Origin: a virus
Direction: 5' to 3' (one strand)
Virus record (IMG/VR): IMGVR_UViG_3300031992_000005
Coordinates: 192,001-256,000 of that record
Length of the DNA stretch: 64,000 nucleotides
Part shown: piece by piece, positions 7,735 to 32,828 of the stretch
Layout: every line of letters begins with the position of its first letter
Position numbering within the stretch: the first letter of the stretch is position 1
Made by a program: the position numbers and the translations under genes
Notes under the pieces: generated by a model
What the model saw: only the letters and a program-made list of their open reading frames with translations
Databases searched by the model: none
What the model was told of the DNA's origin: nothing

Positions 7735-7810
7735 GGGCCTTTAGCTCAGTTGGTCAGTTAGCAACACGCTCATAACGTGGAGGTCGTGGGTTCAAGTCCC
7801 TCAAGGCCCA
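7735..7810 (+). tRNA. tRNA-Met (anticodon CAT; could be Ile2 if lysidine-modified)
   Basis: Acceptor GGGCCTT/AAGGCCC, D arm GCTC..AGC, anticodon stem ACACG/CGTGG with loop CTCATAA, T arm GTGGG TTCAAGT CCCTC. Confidence 0.85.
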
Positions 7811-19920: not shown

Positions 19921-19994
19921 TAATCCGAGAGGGATTCGAACCCTCGACCCCAACATTAAAAGTGTTGTGCTCTGGCCAACTGAGCTATCGAATT
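19921..19994 (-). tRNA. tRNA-Lys (anticodon TTT)
   Basis: Acceptor AATTCGA/TCGGATT, D arm GCTC AGTTGGCCA GAGC, anticodon stem CAACA/TGTTG with loop CTTTTAA, T arm GAGGG TTCGAAT CCCTC. Followed directly by a T-run. Confidence 0.85.
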
Positions 19995-21211: not shown

Positions 21212-21285
21212 TGATCCGGAAGAGATTCGGACTCTTGACCTACAGTTTAGAAGACTGTTGCTCTATCCAGCTGAGCTACCGGACC
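21212..21285 (-). tRNA. tRNA-Arg (anticodon TCT)
   Basis: Acceptor GGTCCGG/CCGGATC, D arm GCTC AGCTGGATA GAGC, anticodon stem ACAGT/ACTGT with loop CTTCTAA, T arm AAGAG TCCGAAT CTCTT. Confidence 0.8.
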
Positions 21286-22375: not shown

Positions 22376-22458
22376 TGCGCCTGACAGGACTCGAACCTGC
22401 ACGTCACCGAGACACTTGATCCTAAGTCAAGCTTGGCTACCAATTACAACACAGGCGC
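22376..22458 (-). tRNA. tRNA-Leu (anticodon TAG), long variable arm
   Basis: Acceptor GCGCCTG/CAGGCGC, anticodon stem CTTGA/TCAAG with loop CTTAGGA, variable arm TGTCTCGGTGACGTG, T arm CAGG TTCGAGT CCTG. Confidence 0.8.
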
Positions 22459-24861: not shown

Positions 24862-24886
24862 AGAATTAAAAAAATTAAATATTATT

Positions 24887-24914
24887 TACAATACAAAAGT
24901 AAGGCATTGAGGGG
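24887..24914 (-). promoter_or_regulatory. promoter motif (class 1 variant)
   Basis: The - strand reads CCCCTCAATGCCTTACTTTTGTATTGTA. Confidence 0.45.
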
Positions 24915-24940
24915 AGAAAAAAAATACCCCTTCAGAAAGG

Positions 24941-25031
24941 GGATAATGCCTTATATATGTAATTTATATTATCTTTCATACATGTTTACTAAAGGGGATC
25001 GTCCGTGATGGATATATCCCCTCATTTTTTT
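24941..25031 (+). ncRNA. ORF-less promoter-to-terminator unit (sRNA candidate)
   Basis: GGATAATGCCTTATATATG, then 34 nt AT-rich, then hairpin GGGGATCGTCCGTGATGGATATATCCCC, then T-run. Confidence 0.45.
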
Positions 25032-25035
25032 GTTC

Positions 25036-25145
25036 AAAAAAAATAGGATCGAGATATACATATTACTATGTATAACCCTGACTGACTATTCTTTTTGAGA
25101 TTTATTATACTCTATATATATCTATTTATAAGGCATTAAGGGGAG
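25036..25145 (-). ncRNA. ORF-less promoter-to-terminator unit (sRNA candidate)
   Basis: The - strand reads CCCCTTAATGCCTTATAAATAGA, then about 50 nt, then TATACAT agtaat ATGTATA hairpin and T8. The hairpin differs from family 1. Confidence 0.35.
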
Positions 25146-25166
25146 AAAAAATACCGCCCCAGAAAG

Positions 25167-25262
25167 AGAAAAATGCCTTATATATAGAAACAGACGCATA
25201 ATAATTTAATTTCATAATAATAACTAGGGGATCGGTTCGTGATGAATAGATCCTTTTTTTTT
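25167..25262 (+). ncRNA. ORF-less promoter-to-terminator unit (sRNA candidate)
   Basis: AGAAAAATGCCTTATATATAG, then 39 nt, then GGGGATCGGTTCGTGATGAATAGATCC, then T9. Confidence 0.45.
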
Positions 25263-25265
25263 CAT

Positions 25266-25368
25266 ATCCCTTTAATGCTTTATATATGATCATAAAAAAT
25301 ATTTTTTTAAGTTTGAAAATAATGATTGGAGGATCAGTCCGGGATGGATAGATCCTCTTTTTTTTTTT
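25266..25368 (+). ncRNA. ORF-less promoter-to-terminator unit (sRNA candidate)
   Basis: ATCCCTTTAATGCTTTATATATG, then 39 nt, then GGAGGATCAGTCCGGGATGGATAGATCCTC, then T11. Confidence 0.45.
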
Positions 25369-25371
25369 GTT

Positions 25372-25405
25372 CAAAAAAAATCCCCCGACACGGGGATTCC
25401 TTTTT
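25372..25405. terminator. bidirectional intrinsic terminator
   Basis: A8, hairpin ATCCCC gaca(c) GGGGAT, then T5. Confidence 0.6.
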
Positions 25406-25655
25406 ATACACTTACGTTGAAGCCTAGGATATATTTATAAAATAAATCAGAGATCCTTTCATATATGCTTGGCTTTCCTGTGTAAAATTTTAATACTGAT
25501 CTTCCACTCTTAGTTAGTTTCCATGTTTCACCACTTGGAGAAACTGAAACGCTAATGTAGCCAAGCCTTAGTAATTCATCTACGTCTACTAAGCTTTCAA
25601 TGTCCTTCAATAGGCCTTTAGTTGAACTTAAAGCGTCTTTTAAATTTTTATTCAT
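25404..25655 (-). CDS. hypothetical protein (possible winged-helix)
   Basis: 83-aa ORF. Confidence 0.55.
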   Translation of the reverse strand: MNKNLKDALSSTKGLLKDIESLVDVDELLRLGYISVSVSPSGETWKLTKSGRSVLKFYTGKPSIYERISDLFYKYILGFNVSV

Positions 25656-25674
25656 AATTGTTAGGTGTTGTGTT

Positions 25675-25700
25675 TATATACTCTTAAGGTATTAAGAGGG
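25675..25700 (-). promoter_or_regulatory. promoter motif (class 1 variant)
   Basis: The - strand reads CCCTCTTAATACCTTAAGAGTATATA. Confidence 0.45.
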
Positions 25701-25702
25701 AA

Positions 25703-25871
25703 GAAAAAAAAAGAGAGGGGAACCCGTTTTAGAGAGTTGACTGATCGTCTGTGCGTCTGTGGGTTCCCCGGAGTGCAGCTGAGCCCGTCCTTTCGATCAT
25801 CGGCGGGGTCCGATCTGCTGCAATTTTCTAAAATCTAATTCCTTTATGTTCATATATAAGGATTTAAGGGG
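25703..25871 (-). ncRNA. GC-rich structured ncRNA candidate (about 135 nt transcript)
   Basis: The - strand reads CCCCTTAAATCCTTATATATG promoter, then GCAGC..ATCGG acccc(g) CCGAT..GCTGC nested helices. A 9-bp helix GGGGAACCC/GGGTTCCCC and T9 close it. GC-rich relative to the AT-rich flanks. Confidence 0.5.
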
Positions 25872-25885
25872 ATTTCAGATTCTTC

Positions 25886-25987
25886 AAAAAAAAGAGAGGA
25901 TCTATCCGTCTCGGACCAATCCTCTAAAAATTATTTAACCTAAATATGATTGTTATGAATGTTTTACATATATAAGAGTTTAAGGGG
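25886..25987 (-). ncRNA. ORF-less promoter-to-terminator unit (sRNA candidate)
   Basis: The - strand reads CCCCTTAAACTCTTATATATG, then about 41 nt, then AGAGGATTGGTCCGAGACGGATAGATCCTCT, then T8. Confidence 0.45.
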
Positions 25988-25989
25988 AT

Positions 25990-26096
25990 AAAAAAAAGAG
26001 GATGACCTATCACAGGCGACCCTCTTCTTCAATAACAAAAATTTAAATCTTTAAATCTATGGATATAATATACAACATATATAAGGGTTTAAAGGG
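25990..26096 (-). ncRNA. ORF-less promoter-to-terminator unit (sRNA candidate)
   Basis: The - strand reads CCCTTTAAACCCTTATATATG, then about 50 nt, then AGAGGGTCGCCTGTGATAGGTCATCCTCT, then T8. Confidence 0.45.
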
Positions 26097-26098
26097 AT

Positions 26099-26202
26099 AA
26101 AAAAAAGAGGAGATCTATCCATCTCGGACTGATCTCCACCTGACATCTGAATATACATCATACTAAAATGAGAGTATTACACGTTAATAAGGAATTAAGG
26201 GG
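26099..26202 (-). ncRNA. ORF-less promoter-to-terminator unit (sRNA candidate)
   Basis: The - strand reads CCCCTTAATTCCTTATTAACGTG, then about 42 nt, then GGAGATCAGTCCGAGATGGATAGATCTCC, then T-run. Confidence 0.45.
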
Positions 26203-26204
26203 AT

Positions 26205-26298
26205 AAAAAAAAAGAGAATCTATCCATCTCGGACTGATCCTCTAATAAGAAACATTCTATTAATTCTTAAACTTTTACATATATAAGAATTTAAGGGG
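26205..26298 (-). ncRNA. ORF-less promoter-to-terminator unit (sRNA candidate)
   Basis: The - strand reads CCCCTTAAATTCTTATATATG, then about 34 nt, then AGAGGATCAGTCCGAGATGGATAGATTCTCT, then T9. Confidence 0.45.
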
Positions 26299-26301
26299 AT
26301 G

Positions 26302-26390
26302 AAAAAAAAAAAGAGAATCTATCCATCACGAACTGATCCTCTTCAGAGTAAAATAAACATTACACGTACATATATAAGGCATTTAAGGGG
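26302..26390 (-). ncRNA. ORF-less promoter-to-terminator unit (sRNA candidate)
   Basis: The - strand reads CCCCTTAAATGCCTTATATATG, then about 26 nt, then AGAGGATCAGTTCGTGATGGATAGATTCTCT, then T11. Confidence 0.45.
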
Positions 26391-26393
26391 TAT

Positions 26394-26493
26394 AAAAAAA
26401 ATGACCGACTCATCACGAGCCAGCCATTGAATAATTTTTGAACTTTTTTTACCCAAGAAAAATAAGTACTTTCATTTATAAGAATTTAAAGGG
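26394..26493 (-). ncRNA. ORF-less promoter-to-terminator unit (sRNA candidate)
   Basis: The - strand reads CCCTTTAAATTCTTATAAATG, then about 45 nt, then AUGGCUGGCUC GUGAU GAGUCGGUCAU. That helix has 11 bp with three G.U pairs, so it is valid only on the - strand. T-run follows. Confidence 0.45.
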
Positions 26494-26497
26494 ATTT

Positions 26498-26533
26498 GAG
26501 AAAATAGACCAGCCCCACATTAAAGGCTGGCCC
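26498..26533 (-). terminator. terminator downstream of the polymerase last exon
   Basis: The - strand reads GGCCAGCC tttaatgtgg GGCTGGTC followed by T-rich sequence. Confidence 0.5.
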
Positions 26534-26545
26534 ACAGAATTAATA

Positions 26546-26935
26546 TTATAGTCGGTGAAACCTAACGGTCACCTTTGATACATCCATCGATATAGAACAA
26601 CCATTTTCTAAGATTGTTCTGTAATATGGATCTTCAATCATCTTCTTTTCTGATACTAGCTCTTCCCTAGTCTTATCACATTCACACCTGATACTAGGGG
26701 AATTCATTAATTTGTCATAAATTAATATAAGATTACTAGCAGGACCAGAAAATTCTATCGTATTTTTGTCTATCTGCGTTAATGGACATGCAGATTCATA
26801 TCCATATCCACACAAAAGATCAAACAGTAACTTTATCTTTGGCCCAATAGTTGCACAATAATCCGTATATTTTTCATCATAATATGCCCTAATATCAAAT
26901 ATGTGATCTATTGGAATAAGATTAGTATTAGAATC
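26546..26935 (-). CDS. DNA polymerase, family A (PolA) - exon 4
   Basis: Begins GAT TCT (DSNTN..). Joined to exon 3 it gives ..IITVH|DSNTN, which is motif C (vHDe). In-frame to TAA at 26546-26548. Confidence 0.7.
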   Translation of the reverse strand, partial: DSNTNLIPIDHIFDIRAYYDEKYTDYCATIGPKIKLLFDLLCGYGYESACPLTQIDKNTIEFSGPASNLILIYDKLMNSPSIRCECDKTREELVSEKKMIEDPYYRTILENGCSISMDVSKVTVRFHRL

Positions 26936-27237
26936 CGTTCTCTTCACATAAATTCGCTACATTTATGCCGGGCAATGCCACAGCTAATCATCTCTGATTA
27001 GACGAGACTATATCTTCAGTAAATAATTACTGCCTACTTTTTCGAACACCCATCGCTTGTGCTCTACTCTACTCACTTCTTCAGGTTTCCCCTATGCTTT
27101 CGATAGTCGTTGAATAAGTTTATAACTTACTGCTGATTGACTCTATTCATTGGATTTTTACTTCTATTCGATAGTACCAATGACCTAACAAGTTGTTCCA
27201 GCAATTAAGTAGGTTTATAGTGCACCATAAACTAACA
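26936..27237 (-). mobile_element. group I intron 3 (302 nt, ORF-less)
   Basis: The - strand carries P AATTGCTGGAA (27196-27206), Q AATCAGCAG (27130-27138), R TTCAACGACTATCG (27101-27114) and S AAGATATAGTCT (27005-27016). The 5' exon ends in U and the intron ends in G. Confidence 0.75.
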
Positions 27238-27637
27238 ATGCACTGTAATAATAGGTTGTAATGGTTGCTTCCAACCATCTTTAATTGATGACCTAATATT
27301 ATTAAAGAATCCACTAGCCATAATTGTACTAGTTCCTCCTTGAATAGGTAAATTTACACCTAATCTTTTGATTCTGGCAATTATATTTTGCGCTTCTTTT
27401 TGATCTTTTGCTTTTGGCAAATATTCATAATACTCCCTTAACCTTAATTTGTCTCCTAACATGGTATTAATGTAACCATCATGATCTAATGGATACTGAC
27501 CCTGAGACTCCACATATTCCCTGAGCTTTGGAAAAGACTTATATAAACTCTGGATAATATTCTCAGCTTCTTCAACAGAACTATCTAGTCGAGCTGCTAA
27601 GGAATTTTTCCCTAAGCCGTACAATACACCCAAGAAT
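27238..27637 (-). CDS. DNA polymerase, family A - exon 3
   Basis: FLGVLYGLGKNSLAARL (motif B, K..NFG..YG), NLPIQGGTS, ends ..ITVH. Confidence 0.75.
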
Positions 27638-27932
27638 CATTACTACTCATAATTTCTTATGAGATTAGACTATATCATTATCCGATTATTCGGATAGGTT
27701 GCACTTCGGAATAGAGAATTTCACTCTAAACCTACTCCTCGGTTAAAATTATTTTAACGTCATAGGATAGTCGTTACACTTTCTTAGACTAATCTAAGCT
27801 TAGCACGGTATTGGCATATCTTATTATTAAGACTTAGCTTTCCACCGTTAGCACTAATAAATTAGTACACCCTAGATTTCTAGGTTCACAACCTTTTCAT
27901 TAACTAATTACTTAGTTATGCCACATCTATCT
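27638..27932 (-). mobile_element. group I intron 2 (295 nt, ORF-less)
   Basis: The - strand carries P AACGGTGGAAAG (27838-27849), Q CCAATACCGTGC (27803-27814), R GTAACGACTATCC (27765-27777) and S GATATAGTCT (27667-27676). P1 guide GTGG pairs with exon CCAU. The intron ends ..GTAATG. Confidence 0.75.
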
Positions 27933-28146
27933 ATGGTCTTGAATTTCTTTCTATAAGTCTTTTGTTCTTTTTTACTAAGGTTATTCCAACCTTCTTCACC
28001 TAAATATAGTTTCGAACTATATATGTATATGTCTTCTCCAGCGTTGAACTTACTTATTAGATCAGGATCCAAAGACGCGTCAATTTTGTTATCCTTAGAA
28101 CTTTTTATTTCTAAGTTCAATTGATTCTTAATTCTCAATTGTTCAG
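27933..28146 (-). CDS. DNA polymerase, family A - exon 2
   Basis: Starts CT GAA CAA TTG AGA. With exon 1 this gives ..YFDINSEQLRI (motif A, DYSQIELR-like), then GEDIYIYSS (DIH..TA) and RKKFKTI. Confidence 0.7.
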
Positions 28147-28414
28147 CATATATTTTCACCCTATTAGATAGGGTGGGGAACACTCGTGGTAGGATTATTC
28201 TATTCGTCACCTACTATGCGTTACACTACTAGGATACCTTTAATATTATCTTAGTTAGCACGGTATTGGCATCTCAGCTTTCACCGTTTTTGCTCCCTGT
28301 ACCCCGTAATATTACTATTACGGTGGGCAATTTTTTACCCCGCGCTCTTACAGATTGTTACCCTATAGGCTTTTTATCCTATAGTTCTATGGATTCATTT
28401 TATCCATAGCTCGG
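28147..28414 (-). mobile_element. intron-like unit A (268 nt), third element stacked at the motif-A site
   Basis: Starts CCGAGC, ends GAAAATATATG. P/Q-like block AAAACGGTGAAAGC..CCAATACCGTGCTAAC is identical to unit B and related to intron 2. I found no clear P1 guide. Confidence 0.5.
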
Positions 28415-28615
28415 CATATATTTTCATCCTAGATAACTAGGATGACGGACACTCGTGGAGAGATTATATTTATTCACTCTCTATGCTCTACACTACTTAC
28501 TTAACCTTTCGCAATTTAAATAAGTTAGCACGGTATTGGCATCTCAGCTTTCACCGTTTTTGCCCGTTTATTATCACTTACATTACTATAAGTGACGGCT
28601 AAATTTTAACCTCGG
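28415..28615 (-). mobile_element. intron-like unit B (201 nt), second element stacked at the motif-A site
   Basis: Starts CCGAGGTTAA, ends GAAAATATATG. GGTTAA could pair with exon-1 TTAACU once intron 1a is removed. Same P/Q-like block as unit A. Confidence 0.5.
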
Positions 28616-30154
28616 CACTACTACATTGTGTTCAGGAGGCACGTTACATCTCCCGGTTCTCACTTAGCTAAAACTAAGATGAACTCCTACATATCTCTAT
28701 GCAGATCAGACTATATCTTAATCTCATTTCTGAGATTCTTACCGTTTCCACTTAACGATTTCAAGTGTACTCCCATTACTGGGATAGTCGTTGGGGTTTA
28801 AGAATTTAATCAGTTAGTCGGGCTGATTTTCTTTTATTTTTTGAATAAGGACATTACTGTCTGTAATTACTTCAGTGAAATATCCATATTTTTCGTAAAT
28901 TTTTATTTCATTAGTGAAATATAATAATGGTATATTATTTTTCTTAGCATAATCGTACTTCAGATGATCCCTTTTTATAGCAATTTCTGAATAACGTTTA
29001 TCGTTAGGATCAAAATGTTGACACCCATGATACTCTACTAAGATATTATATTCTGGTAAATAAAAGTCAAACCTAAGATGTGATATATTCTTTAAATCTG
29101 GGTAAGTTTTCTCAGATGTAAATTCAATATTATTTCCCGTAAATAGGTCTGCCAAAAATAGTTCCCCATTAGAGTTAATGAGCGGGAATATGCTATCTTT
29201 ATCATCATCAGATAATAATAAGAACCTATAATAGCAATTACGAAATCTTCTATAAAAATCCTTCCTAGATAGGATATTATTGTCAGCAATAAATACCTTA
29301 AAATCTTCTACCGTATTAATATTAGAGTAATCTCTATTATTGTTTGGTAATAGACTTTCTTTCTCCTCTTTAGATAAGAGTCTACTAAATCTGCAATATA
29401 CTTGCTCAAATCTACGACAAAGATCTATTCTGGAGGTTATATTATTTTCTTGAATAAATGAACGAAAATCCTCATATGTATTTATATACGAATAATCTTT
29501 TAGCATACTAGGGAGAATTCTATTTTGATCTTCACTACTCAATTTAATAAACTTATTATATCCTCCTCGAAATCTTTTTTGAAAATCATAACGGCCTACA
29601 ATTTCGTATGTTTTAATGAATTTCCTAAAATCATCCTCAGTATTCAAAGTAGAGTAATCTGCCTTTTTTATAGTTCCTTTATAAGGTAAAATAGTTTCTT
29701 GCTCTTCCTTTGATAGAAAGTTTAAGAACCTAAGATAAGCCCCAGGATATTCAGTATGTAATGTTTTTCGAGAGTGAATATTATTAGTTTTAATAAACCT
29801 TTTAAAGTCGTTTGCAGTATTGAGATTAGAATAATTACCTAAGTTCGAAGGCAGTAATTTTTCTTGTTCATCATTACTTAATTTCTTGAAGCAATTATAA
29901 ACCTTTCTATACTCCTCTCTCAGCCTAGACCTCTTCTCAATACCATTATCTTTTATAAATTTTTTTATTTCCTCATAATCCATTTTTTTTTTAAATTTTA
30001 ATTTTTTTCGTTCTTCTTAAACCTGCTGATTAACTCTATTCCCTAGATTGTTACTGCCGTGACTAAATCGGCTAGTACTAGAGACCTAACAAGTCTTTCC
30101 AGCATTTAGTAAGTTTGTTTTTCATAAGGTCACCCTTATGTGACACTAGTTTCT
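28616..30154 (-). mobile_element. group I intron 1a (1539 nt) carrying a homing-endonuclease ORF
   Basis: The - strand carries P AAATGCTGGAAAG (30095-30107), Q AATCAGCAGG (30022-30031), then the ORF, then R AACGACTATCC (28782-28792) and S AAGATATAGTCT (28708-28719). Follows exon-1 U30155 and ends in G28616. Confidence 0.7.
28814..29983 (-). CDS. intron-encoded homing endonuclease (PD-(D/E)XK / Vsr-DUF559-like nuclease with 5 N-terminal repeats)
   Basis: Five repeats of about 55 aa ([DN]YS.[LI]NT..DF..FI..N.I.SR....R[FY]...Y..F..LS..E[QK]..[IL]LP). C-terminus HLRFDFYLPEYNILVEYHGCQHF. Sits between Q and R of the intron. Confidence 0.65.
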   Translation of the reverse strand: MDYEEIKKFIKDNGIEKRSRLREEYRKVYNCFKKLSNDEQEKLLPSNLGNYSNLNTANDFKRFIKTNNIHSRKTLHTEYPGAYLRFLNFLSKEEQETILPYKGTIKKADYSTLNTEDDFRKFIKTYEIVGRYDFQKRFRGGYNKFIKLSSEDQNRILPSMLKDYSYINTYEDFRSFIQENNITSRIDLCRRFEQVYCRFSRLLSKEEKESLLPNNNRDYSNINTVEDFKVFIADNNILSRKDFYRRFRNCYYRFLLLSDDDKDSIFPLINSNGELFLADLFTGNNIEFTSEKTYPDLKNISHLRFDFYLPEYNILVEYHGCQHFDPNDKRYSEIAIKRDHLKYDYAKKNNIPLLYFTNEIKIYEKYGYFTEVITDSNVLIQKIKENQPD

Positions 30155-32828
30155 AGTTAATGTCAAAATATGTTAGTAATTGGTCATCCCCACCATATAT
30201 GATATTTCCATTTTTGTTCCGAATTGGAGCAGGAATTAAGCAATTTTTGACAGGGCTATGTGAGGGAATCGTATGAAAACTTGATGACCAGCGTTTACTT
30301 GATTTTTTGAGTACTTCGTATGGAGTAAAATTCTTCTTTACTGCTCCTGGTTCATCCGGATCTGCATCTCTAATTGGAATATGATGCTCATCTTCAATTA
30401 CCCATTTTGCCCTCTTATTAAACATTCCATCTGGACCTACATACACACTTAACATTTTCGCATGTTTCTTATATATGAGGTAGTTGAGTGTGAATTTTCT
30501 CATAAAGTAGAAATCATTACTGAGATCTACCTCAGGATCAAATGGGCTTTCATAATTTAAGTAATCACCCTGATACTCTGGAAAAAGTTGTGTTTGTGTG
30601 TTAAATCCAAGAAAATCTGTCCAAATTTCCTTTACTTTATCTGCGGTTTGATATAAAACTGTCTCTACACCTTTCACACTAACTTTTTTTCCAAGTTTAG
30701 GGCTACCATAAAATTCGAATGCTAGGTCAAATACTTTCTTCGGGTATAATGGGCTTTCGTATTCGCCATTACTGTCATAATACTTTTTCCATTCATCTAA
30801 CATTTCTTGATAACCTTCATCTATATCAGTAATACCTCTACTTGAATAGAATTTTGTTGTCTCAGGTAACTGCTGGATACTTTCTGACATGGCAGCTAAG
30901 AAAGCAGTTTTTCCTTTAAGTCCAGGAATGATAGGATTAACCATCATATCATATACGATTTTATCATTCTGTTCTGGACTAAGACACATGAAATAATTAT
31001 CAGATAGAAACTTAGAATACTCCAAGAGATCCATTTTCTTACCAAAGATATATATTTTCTCTGGGATATTATGAATATCCTTAAGCTGTTTTTTATTTAT
31101 TTTTTCCAGCTCAGTATATATCTTTCGATAATACATGTATTTCTCAAGTTCTATATGCTTCTTATTAATCTTTCCCTCTGAATCAAATTTAAGACTATCA
31201 ATTCCGAAGAGATGTATTGTTTTTTCTGCCAGGACCCCTAAGAATTTCTTTTTCCTAATAATACCTTCGTCGATCTTACCCTTTAACTTAACTTCGCTTG
31301 CAGCTTGTCTAACAAAATCTACGAATTTTTCTCCAAAGTCCTGTCCATATTTCATAACAAGTCCTCCCTCATTTAATCCAGTTTCTGTTGAATCTAGGTA
31401 ATCGAGATTACTTGTTAAGATATATTTTAAGATTTCAATTATATTACCTTGAAAAAAGTTTCCTTCTTCCAATAGTTTTACAGCAATTGGCTTATATCTC
31501 TTTATATTAGTAGCCAAGGATTGATGTTTTTGCATCTTTATCCAACAAAGAGCTCTAGTTGCCCAAGTACTAGACCAAGCCATCATCTCCTTACAATACT
31601 TTTCAAATCTAAGTCTGAATGGCTCATCTATATAGTGGCCATGTGACATAAGTCTTGCGCCAAGTCTCAGGTTATCTAAGAAAACGTTGAAACACTCTTC
31701 TGTATACTCAGACTTTTTCTTAAGATAAATCATAAGAGTATAGAATGAGTCAAGGCAGCAATACTTTCCTAAGATTTCACTTGGGATAGGCATGAATTGA
31801 TTTCCCCAATACTCTAAGATCAGTTCCTTAAATTCATCTTCATATCCAGGATATCTCTTACAAATTTCTCCCCATTCAGGAGTATTTGTAAAGTTTTCTG
31901 GGGTTACTTTTAATTCTAGGTGAATGTCCTTCTTAAGTTTACCAACTTCCTCCAATAGCATGTGTTCAATTAAGTCACTAAGTCTATCGAAGTCAGAATC
32001 CCAAACTTTCACACCAAGTACTCTTTGAGCAGTCCATTTGAGAGAGTAGTTCTTCTCATGTAATCCATCTAGTACATTAACGACGGATGCATCTGATAGT
32101 TCATATAAGTCAACTCCCATTATTCTATGACTAACCTGATACTCGAATTGTAGGTTATAAGTCCAGATATGTTTCATTCTCTTAGATAGAAATTTTGCCA
32201 GTTTATCTAAGACTGCCCTATACCCTTCACTAGACTCTCCTACTTCATGTCTCAAGTCCGTTAAGCTAATAAAAGCCGCTTCTTTTGCTGTAGATATTGC
32301 AAAACCTGATACAAAGAACACTTTCTCCATTGGCATTCCACTAGTTTCATAGTCAAATCCAAAGTCAGTGTCCAATGGTAATGAGTCTACGTAATCAAGG
32401 AACCTCAATGCATCAGTCACAGTGTGAATTACGCACCACTTGAAATCATGGTAATCAACCTCTCTTGTAAAACTTGGACTTATAAAGTCTTCTAAGAGAC
32501 CTGGAATCAATGCCTGTTGTACATCTACTGCACATCTAACATAAGCTCCGCCTTCTAAGGATACTCTATAAATTCTGGAACAATCGAAGTAATTTTCACC
32601 ACGAATACCAAAGTGATACCTTTCTCTCAGGTAACTGAAGGCTTTAGCGCCAATTAATAATGCACCATCCCCTTCACCAAGTGCAAGAAGATCATTTCTT
32701 TGTTCTTCGTCCATCTTCTCTAGAAGTTCTAGAGGATAGACTCCACAACTTAGTTTTAATCCATATAATCCCACATAATCGTGGCATTCTTCTGAACTAA
32801 CTAAAACTATCCTTTTATTCATAATCAC
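30155..32828 (-). CDS. DNA polymerase, family A - exon 1 (3'-5' exonuclease plus N-terminal polymerase part)
   Basis: 891-aa ORF with FGFDYETSG (ExoI), NLQFEYQ (ExoII) and YCCLDSFY (ExoIII). Ends ..LLTYFDIN at the start of motif A. T30155 of the in-frame TAG is taken as the last exon nt. Confidence 0.75.

Follow-up and report, generated by a model that had tools for sequence, protein, structure and literature searches.

Organisation of the polymerase gene

The window analysed in this study is a stretch of 64,000 nucleotides (nt) from a virus genome (IMG/VR record IMGVR_UViG_3300031992_000005, positions 192,001 to 256,000). Its minus strand carries a family-A DNA polymerase gene that is host to five group I introns. 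Three of these are located in polymerase motif A, at three insertion sites within the 29 coding bases for D-I-S-S-A-E-V-K-S-A-G-Y. An earlier reading of the same DNA (the original prediction) had recognised three group I units here, the upstream one with a homing-endonuclease gene and the other two (A and B) as related ribozymes without one, but had stacked them end to end at a single site with no exon between them. Three such units were found, but it is very probable that they are three independent introns at three neighbouring sites, and that the mini-exons between them are genuine coding exons.

All features of the gene are given here in the order of transcription from the minus strand. Exon 1 (30160..32828) comprises 889 codons plus 2 nt and ends in ..TTTGACAT (..GACAT), where homologous polymerases continue ..TYFDI-SSAEVK. 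It is followed at site 1 by intron 1a (30159-28624), a group I intron of 1536 nt, which reads TAACTAG...CACAATG, has a 3'-terminal G and contains a homing-endonuclease open reading frame (ORF) of 389 amino acids (aa) at 28814..29983. Mini-exon 1 (28623-28609; 15 nt, TAGTAGTGCCGAGGT) encodes (I)SSAE(V) and restores the invariant DISSAEV. Site 2 is occupied by intron B (28608-28351; 258 nt, TAAAATTTAGCC...AACAATCTG). Mini-exon 2 (28350-28337; 14 nt, TAAGAGCGCGGGGT) encodes (V)KSAG(Y), restoring the invariant KSAGY, and site 3 is occupied by intron A (28336-28081; 256 nt, AAAAAATTGCCC...AACAAAATTG). Both B and A are ORF-less, IA-like group I introns.

The exon after intron A (27933..28080; 148 nt) was placed by alignment with 21 homologues; it starts with ACGCGTCTTTGG, reads ACGCGTCT...AAGACCAT and encodes (Y)ASLDPDLISKFNAGEDIYIYS...RKKFKT(I). 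A fourth group I intron (27638..27932; 295 nt) interrupts polymerase motif B (KTI/FLGVLYGLG), and its junction ACCAT/ATTCTTGGG restores KTIFLGVLYGLG. An exon of 400 nt (27238..27637) separates it from a fifth group I intron (26936..27237; 302 nt) at ITVH/DSNTN, where the junction GTGCAT/GATTCTAAT restores ITVHDSNTN. The last exon, including the stop codon, spans 26546..26935. All five introns of the gene have a terminal G. Introns 5 and 1a were also similar to each other across the P3-P6 region (repeat family D5).

In the unspliced sequence, the first-exon ORF has 891 codons (30153-32828), the final 'IN*' being read-through into intron 1a, and the frame left open before 28080 is likewise read-through into intron sequence. 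Hundreds of homologues of polymerase exon 1 were present in a collection of 5.8 billion proteins. Some of these were uninterrupted (approximately 1180-1211 aa), and many were fragments of approximately 860-940 aa which end at intron starts. The contigs harbouring polymerase homologues reached 250-600 kilobases (kb), and the relatives on gut contigs of about 400 kb are probably Jug (jumbo gut) phages. Identity to the polymerases of named phages stays below 31%, and a megablast search of phage genomes gave no close relative.

Removal of all five introns gave a coding sequence of 3636 nt with zero internal stops, reading ..FDISSAEVKSAGYASLDPDLI.., and the product of 1211 aa was equal in length to the closest uninterrupted homologue (P0002). 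When compared with 21 uninterrupted full-length homologues, the spliced product showed zero indels across FDISSAEVK[AS]AG[YF]AS. The uninterrupted homologues all show ..LLTYFDISSAEVK[AS]AG[YF]AS.DP.LI.., and this is polymerase motif A, with the D-to-E spacing of DYSQIELR. The predicted ligated order is ..GACAT-TAGTAGTGCCGAGGT-TAAGAGCGCGGGGT-ACGCG.., and a single splice model provides a U at each 5' exon end, a G at each intron end and the sequence of the homologues. Mini-exon 2 encodes the same amino acids as the uninterrupted TAAATCAGCAGGTT of a related contig (L002) while differing from it at 6 of 14 nt, which argues for selection on translation.

Other junctions were tried and rejected. An exon 1 ending in ..AACT and joined to CCGAGGT gave a motif of 13 residues, one residue short, and ends at ..AA or ..AAC broke either the rule of a U.G pair at the splice site or that of a terminal G. 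Joining exon 1 straight to 28080 failed when U.G pair, terminal G and homologue alignment were considered in combination.

In the original prediction, exon 1 ended at 30155 (..ATTAACT), a second exon began at 28146 with CTGAACAATTG, and the three abutting units between them were spliced out in order from a single site. This join is in frame and stop-free, and UUAACU is able to pair with GGUUAA as proposed. It would, however, add 14 residues (..NSEQLRIKNQLNLEIKSSKDNKID..) where the homologues have the invariant SSAEVKSAGY, and with the structural and comparative evidence described below this model was considered extremely improbable.

The original prediction had also allowed that A and/or B might be dead remnants or 3' extensions, excised with 1a as one intron of approximately 2.08 kb (30159-28081). 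Both lack an ORF and are below threshold in Rfam, and the skipping of exons through group I introns has been documented in phages Twort and SIOphi (PMC11878797). Against this, a single excision would delete SSAEVKSAG, including the acidic residue of motif A, and shift the frame by 29 nt. Moreover, both mini-exons retain the invariant amino acids, mini-exon 2 in spite of its nucleotide differences from L002, and the cores of both introns are intact and show covariation. The remnant explanation is therefore very improbable.

Group I identity and RNA structure of the introns

The gathering score of the Rfam model RF00028 is 50 bits. A gathering-mode Rfam scan of the whole window reported four tRNAs only and no intron. 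Under an E-value threshold, RF00028 had four minus-strand matches in the window, corresponding to intron 5 (26984-27262; 63 bits), intron 4 (27646-27892; 49.6 bits), intron B (28387-28618; 38 bits) and intron A (28118-28346; 17.2 bits). The model check suggested for A and B in the original prediction thus matched both units, below threshold, with matches which overran the 3' borders drawn there by 28 nt (B) and 29 nt (A). Reduced IA-type phage introns are expected to score low on RF00028. The core of intron 1a is split by its ORF and was assessed only via an ORF-less site-1 orthologue (in L007), which has the same P1 and scored 50.6 bits.

A P1 helix with a U.G pair at the splice site was identified for each of the three motif-A introns: GACAU/UA with UAGUGUC for 1a, GGU/UAA with UUAGCC for B, and GGGU/AA with UUGCCC for A. 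The same rule held in the introns of L005, L052, L059, L047 and L053. Candidates for P10 in the first bases of the downstream exon were UAGU for 1a and UAAG for B, and within each mini-exon the P1 and P10 roles occupy non-overlapping bases.

In intron B, the helices are P2 (UCACUUA/UAAGUGA), P3 (ACGGGC/GUCCGU), P4 (ACGGU/ACCGU), a short P5, P6, P7 (GCAUA/UAUGC), P7.1 (GAGAG/CUCUC), P8, P9 (CUAUGGA/UCCAUAG) and P9.1 (CUAUAGG/CCUAUAG). The corresponding strands in intron A are GGGAGC/GUUCCC for P3, GUAGG/CCUAC for P7.1, CAAUUGA/UCAAUUG for P9 and CUUAGAA/UUCUAAG for P9.1. For the analysis of covariation, a hand-derived group I structure was imposed on an alignment of six introns of the A/B family (B and A of the window, and those of L002, L005, L052 and L047). 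The pair count treated P7 as a pseudoknot, and the controls were partners slid by 1-3 columns and 500 shuffles. In this alignment 93.4% of cells were paired, compared with 28-45% for slid partners. Compensatory (two-sided) changes were present in 32 of 63 pairs, and none of the 500 shuffles reached the observed values. P4 and P7 are invariant in the family and so uninformative on covariation, while P9 covaried in 3 pairs and P9.1 in 6.

The P7.1 hairpin, located between the 5' strand of P7 and the 3' strand of P3, covaried in 4 of its 5 pairs and was the single helix of this type identified. Subgroup IA is defined by an extra helix or helices (P7.1/P7.2) between P7 and P3', a hallmark of phage-type introns, and introns A and B possess such a helix. 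It is the hairpin which the original prediction had described as covarying; this was borne out, with the strands of B trimmed from AGAGAG/CTCTC to GAGAG/CUCUC.

Thermodynamic folding of the unspliced RNA (28630-28075) placed B and A in two side-by-side domains with no cross-pairing (z = -7.3 versus shuffles) and recovered P1, P2, P3-P6, P7.1, P8, P9 and P9.1 for both. The earlier proposal that B could fold only once 1a had been removed relied on a UUAACU/GGUUAA P1, and this uses nucleotides of intron 1a; in the fold, the P1 of B forms locally in the unspliced RNA. This also argues against ordered splicing of stacked units.

All four borders of the original prediction proved to be wrong. The sequence GAAAATATATG, which had been taken as an intron end, consists of J8/7 and the 3' strand of P7. 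The supposed start of the second exon (28146-28081) is P9/P9.1 of intron A, and the stretch read as the start of unit A is P9/P9.1 of intron B; covariation identifies these stretches as RNA helices rather than coding sequence. The likeness of CCGAGC and CCGAGG to CTGAAC, which had suggested repeated homing into an occupied site, is the homology of the J8/7-P9 segments of A and B and does not imitate a homing site. Homologues of B found by blastn in the terminase and other genes of Staphylococcus, crAss-like, Clostridioides and cyanobacterial phages aligned from approximately 28569 to approximately 28345-28355, which is beyond the earlier B/A border.

The repeats shared by A and B were confirmed as two direct repeats of approximately 270 nt at 28081-28623, with a spacing of 268-270 nt (repeat search, families D3, D6 and D7). 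The similarity runs through the earlier borders (D6: 28132-28163 versus 28400-28431). Tandem Repeats Finder reported nothing in 28000-30200, as the two introns have diverged too far. A repeat block of 48 nt with 94% identity (D3) encloses an identical core, GCAAAAACGGTGAAAGCTGAGATGCCAATACCGTGCTAACT; the identical block of the original prediction is therefore real, although its length is 41 nt and not 42. The conserved CCACGAGTGT was likewise seen in both introns, as was the hairpin before GAAAATATATG. The 41-nt block lies at 28253-28293 in A and 28523-28563 in B, and it spans the region from the 3' end of P3 through J3/4, P4, P5 and P4' to J6.

Occupancy of the three sites in related phages

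Site occupancy was surveyed with a scripted scan of 42 IMG/VR loci plus extra contigs. Approximately 20 loci were empty at all three sites and approximately 20 had an intron at site 1 only, which measured 288-1544 nt and contained an ORF in some loci and none in others. Sites 1 and 2 were both occupied in L002, L005, L059 and L060. Site 2 alone was filled in L052, by an A/B-family intron, and in L050 and L051, by a reduced intron. Site 3 alone was filled by an A-type intron in L047, L046 and L053, where sites 1 and 2 are empty; the 3' junction of the L047 intron reads ..AACAAATTTG/ACGCGTCTGG. The window was the only locus in the survey with all three sites filled. The same-site comparison advised in the original prediction thus revealed three sites, 15 and 14 nt apart and separately occupied, where one stacked site had been expected. 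The occurrence of sites 2 and 3 each filled alone in other phages is a further argument against the stacked arrangement.

Intron-less loci read TTYGAYAT-HAGYTCN.., and empty-site alleles include those of L002 (site 3) and L008. A YSS variant, L044, is intron-less on reading the sequence. Truncated homologue ORFs ended after TYFDI (site 1), SSAEV (site 2) or KSAG (site 3), and others ended after G.DI or inside motif B. The orthologous introns at site 1 ranged from 288 to 1571 nt, with an intact, a decayed or no endonuclease ORF, and the guide sequence CTAGTGTC was common to approximately 20 loci.

One relative, L002, is an ENA contig in which exon 1 is 94% identical to that of the window and intron 1a is present with its endonuclease ORF. 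The contig continues with the mini-exon TAGTAGTGCTGAGGT and an orthologue of intron B ending in ..AACTCTG, followed by an unbroken TAAATCAGCAGGTTACGCCAGTTTGGATCC encoding KSAGYASLDP. As site 3 is empty, the orthologue runs directly into TAAATCAGCAGGTTACGCC, which fixes the 3' end of B at 64 nt past the border of the original prediction. Mini-exon 1 recurs, with one synonymous change, in L002 as well as in L005 and L059.

Two further arrangements were observed among the surveyed loci. In L050 (5633-5810) and L051, which are Jug-like phages, the reduced site-2 intron measures approximately 180-205 nt and reads GAGGT/TTTAATTGGCC...ATATCTG/CAAAGC; this fits the mean intron length of approximately 206 nt given for Jug phages (PMC12880540). 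In L059 (8595-9088) and L060, the site-1 intron has 494 nt and retains a decayed C-terminal endonuclease remnant (..GYFTDVITDPNILINKIKE..), and is a snapshot of the decay of an endonuclease gene. It is followed by the mini-exon and then by an A/B-family intron of 265 nt at site 2.

Several points weigh against three independently spliced introns in one genome. Both B and A miss the RF00028 gathering score with their 38 and 17.2 bits (as does intron 4 with 49.6), and the P10 of intron A is weak, at approximately 1 base pair. Two ribozymes of approximately 250 nt sharing one exon of 14-15 nt might hinder each other sterically, and some kinetic order is possible. Splicing of the three introns, and with it self-splicing activity, splicing order and mode of mobility, is predicted from sequence. 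The DNA pattern of B, mini-exon and A matched the window once and nothing in Joint Genome Institute (JGI) metagenome contigs or IMG/VR.

This last result also bears on the possibility of a chimeric assembly, in which the triple arrangement would combine co-occurring strains, such as one with 1a and B and one with A only. The component genotypes both exist in metagenomes (L002 and L047), and the triple was seen nowhere else among the loci surveyed, the JGI contigs and IMG/VR. However, B and A are just 69% identical and are joined via a unique mini-exon of 14 nt and unique flanks, and the divergent patch at site 3 is graded, as in recombination, with no abrupt switch. A chimera was therefore judged highly unlikely.

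A duplication is also unlikely. In this explanation, intron A would be a tandem duplicate of B and its flank in this genome rather than a separate acquisition at site 3. The identical 41-nt block is common to A and B, as is their P5 variant (AGC/GCC), to which the block owes its full identity; the site-3 relatives have a compensated GTC/GAT (GUC/GAU) here. The identical block could, however, stem from core conservation or from local gene conversion, and as weak evidence it may hint at conversion between neighbouring paralogues. Both the guide sequence of A and its exon flank (AAGAGCGCGGGGT) agree with their counterparts in L046 and L047, where the flank reads AAGAG[CT]GCAGGGT. Intron A also appears from these comparisons not to be a recent copy of B, because its identity is 78% with the L047 intron at site 3 but only 69% with B. 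Separate acquisition of A at site 3 therefore accounts better for these data.

Origin of the cluster and comparison with known systems

The ORF of intron 1a matched PHROG 9084 'homing endonuclease' (E = 5e-19, aa 270-366) and PHROG 559 (E = 2e-16), the proteins of which are listed with a VSR-endonuclease fold (PMC11878797). There was no Pfam match above threshold and no PDB sequence match for this ORF. It consists of four tandem N-terminal repeats of approximately 55 aa (period 162-177 nt, family D1), which are presumably DNA-binding modules, and a C-terminal nuclease domain.

The window and L002 were 100% identical over the last 100 nt of exon 1. Identity was 14/15 in mini-exon 1, 93% in intron B and 8/14 in mini-exon 2. 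In the exon after intron A, it was 68% over the first 74 nt and 90% over the last 74 nt, and the following exon was 96% identical. Every change near site 3 (KSAGYASLDP) was synonymous, while several residues differed deeper in the exon. Such a divergent patch beside site 3 is the footprint to be expected of recombination or co-conversion accompanying the acquisition of intron A, or the loss of A in L002.

Depending on the phage, introns of the A/B family are found at site 2 or at site 3; both sites end in ..GGU, matching the GCC(C) guide. In addition, an intron closely related to 1a, whose homologous ORF has 558 aa, was observed in L047 (6592-8606) at a fourth site, GGAACCGACAT/...CACAATG/TTATATTTACTCA (in G.DI/YIYS). 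This site is located approximately 90 nt downstream of site 1, and both have a 5' exon ending in GACAU. Six homologue ORFs (P0005, P0056, P0070, P0078, P0110 and P0117) stop at the fourth site. Pairs of sites with matching 5' exon ends suggest guide-sequence-directed transposition, and the distribution of the A/B family at sites 2 and 3 (GGU) and of the 1a family at sites 1 and 4 (GACAU) is as predicted by reverse-splicing-mediated transposition. That the cluster itself records such hops between neighbouring sites is a tentative proposal. The ORF-less B and A may have spread inside the co-conversion tract of the 1a endonuclease.

A mechanism consistent with these data would be as follows. The motif-A DNA would be a hot spot colonised three separate times, with 1a bringing a homing endonuclease, and B and A being ORF-less paralogues of one IA-like family. 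The presence of that family at both sites 2 and 3 would be explained by their common ..GGU end, which fits its guide sequence. Intron A would have been gained, or lost in the sister phage, via recombination replacing approximately 90 bases of exon flank. Each intron is predicted to form P1 with the 3-5 bases that end the exon or mini-exon immediately 5' to it, and, as each has its own P1, U.G pair and terminal G, 1a, B and A would be capable of independent folding and splicing, with no fixed order of removal. Presumably, orthologues of B and A function in genomes without neighbouring introns; together with the local P1 helices and the folding into separate domains, this suggests that prior removal of 1a would not be required. 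By analogy with Twort and SIOphi (PMC11878797), occasional exon skipping is conceivable.

The mini-exons of 14-15 nt may be near the minimum length at which an exon can supply both P10 of one ribozyme and P1 of the next. If this is the case, three ribozymes would dock sequentially, and expression of the polymerase would be tied to three coupled splicing events. The cluster leaves knowledge of the intron mechanism unchanged. It does matter for annotation: gene callers shorten or mis-join the polymerase, many public homologues are fragments of this sort, and hidden exons of 14-15 nt are likely wherever two phage introns appear adjacent. The locus is also a compact natural system of three ribozymes on 29 coding bases, with sister genomes missing one or two of them. 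Questions that could be addressed with it are the limits of intron packing, interference or exon skipping between neighbouring ribozymes, the spread of ORF-less introns beside an endonuclease intron, and moves to nearby sites which match the guide.

Elsewhere in the window, the four tRNA genes reported by Rfam (52-70 bits) are located at 7735-7810 on the plus strand and at 19921-19994, 21212-21285 and 22376-22458 on the minus strand, the last with a long variable arm. An array of repeats of approximately 100 nt (ACATATATAAGnnTTTAAGGGGAT-A8-GAGnATCTATCCATCTCGGACTGATCCTCT) was observed at 24880-26510, each unit containing a GAGGATC..GATCCTC hairpin. There are 6-9 plus-strand copies at 25850-26510 and inverted copies at 24880-25380, and spurious ORFs with 'KKKRIYPSRTDP' stem from this array. 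It may represent an array of promoters and terminators, or one of small RNAs.

The cluster resembles homing with co-conversion, and collaborative or trans homing, as reviewed in PMC3984707, in that an endonuclease intron lies beside introns that lack an ORF and intron A is flanked by a divergent patch of exon; it differs from the reviewed systems in that the hitch-hiking of B and A is deduced. In mitochondrial genes with group I or group II introns, very short intron-flanked exons are easily missed, and two seemingly adjacent introns usually conceal a mini-exon rather than forming a twintron (PMC10352661). The hidden short exons described here were similarly misread as adjoining introns. However, the mitochondrial cases are organellar, often with protein-assisted splicing, whereas the present host is a phage gene.

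Jug phages are reported to carry approximately 18.5 group I introns per genome, their DNA polymerase genes are often split, and metatranscriptomes confirmed splicing for 37 of 76 predicted introns (PMC12880540). The nearest relatives of the present polymerase sit, like Jug phages, on gut-phage contigs of 250-400 kb. Unlike the cluster reported here, clustered introns with mini-exons are not described for Jug phages in the text consulted (PMC12880540), and the Jug-like site-2 intron of approximately 180-205 nt (L050) differs in type from A and B.

The DNA polymerase genes of phages are classical hosts of group I introns, as in SPO1 and Bastille (PMC3984707, PMC11878797). Three group I introns, with exon skipping, are present in orf142 of Twort, the DNA polymerase and terminase genes of Bastillevirinae carry two or three introns each, and the ribonucleotide reductase gene of phiNIT1 has a small exon between two introns (PMC11878797). 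A limited literature search found no account of three phage introns in 29 coding bases with internal exons of 15 and 14 nt. As in Twort and the Bastillevirinae, several group I introns, some with homing-endonuclease ORFs, interrupt one essential phage gene, with the DNA polymerase as the preferred host gene. The present gene differs in having three introns in 29 coding bases, internal exons as short as 15 and 14 nt and five introns in total, and in belonging to an uncultivated large-phage lineage with a polymerase remote from those of named phages. The cluster is thus composed of ordinary group I introns of a known kind, at an unusually high density.

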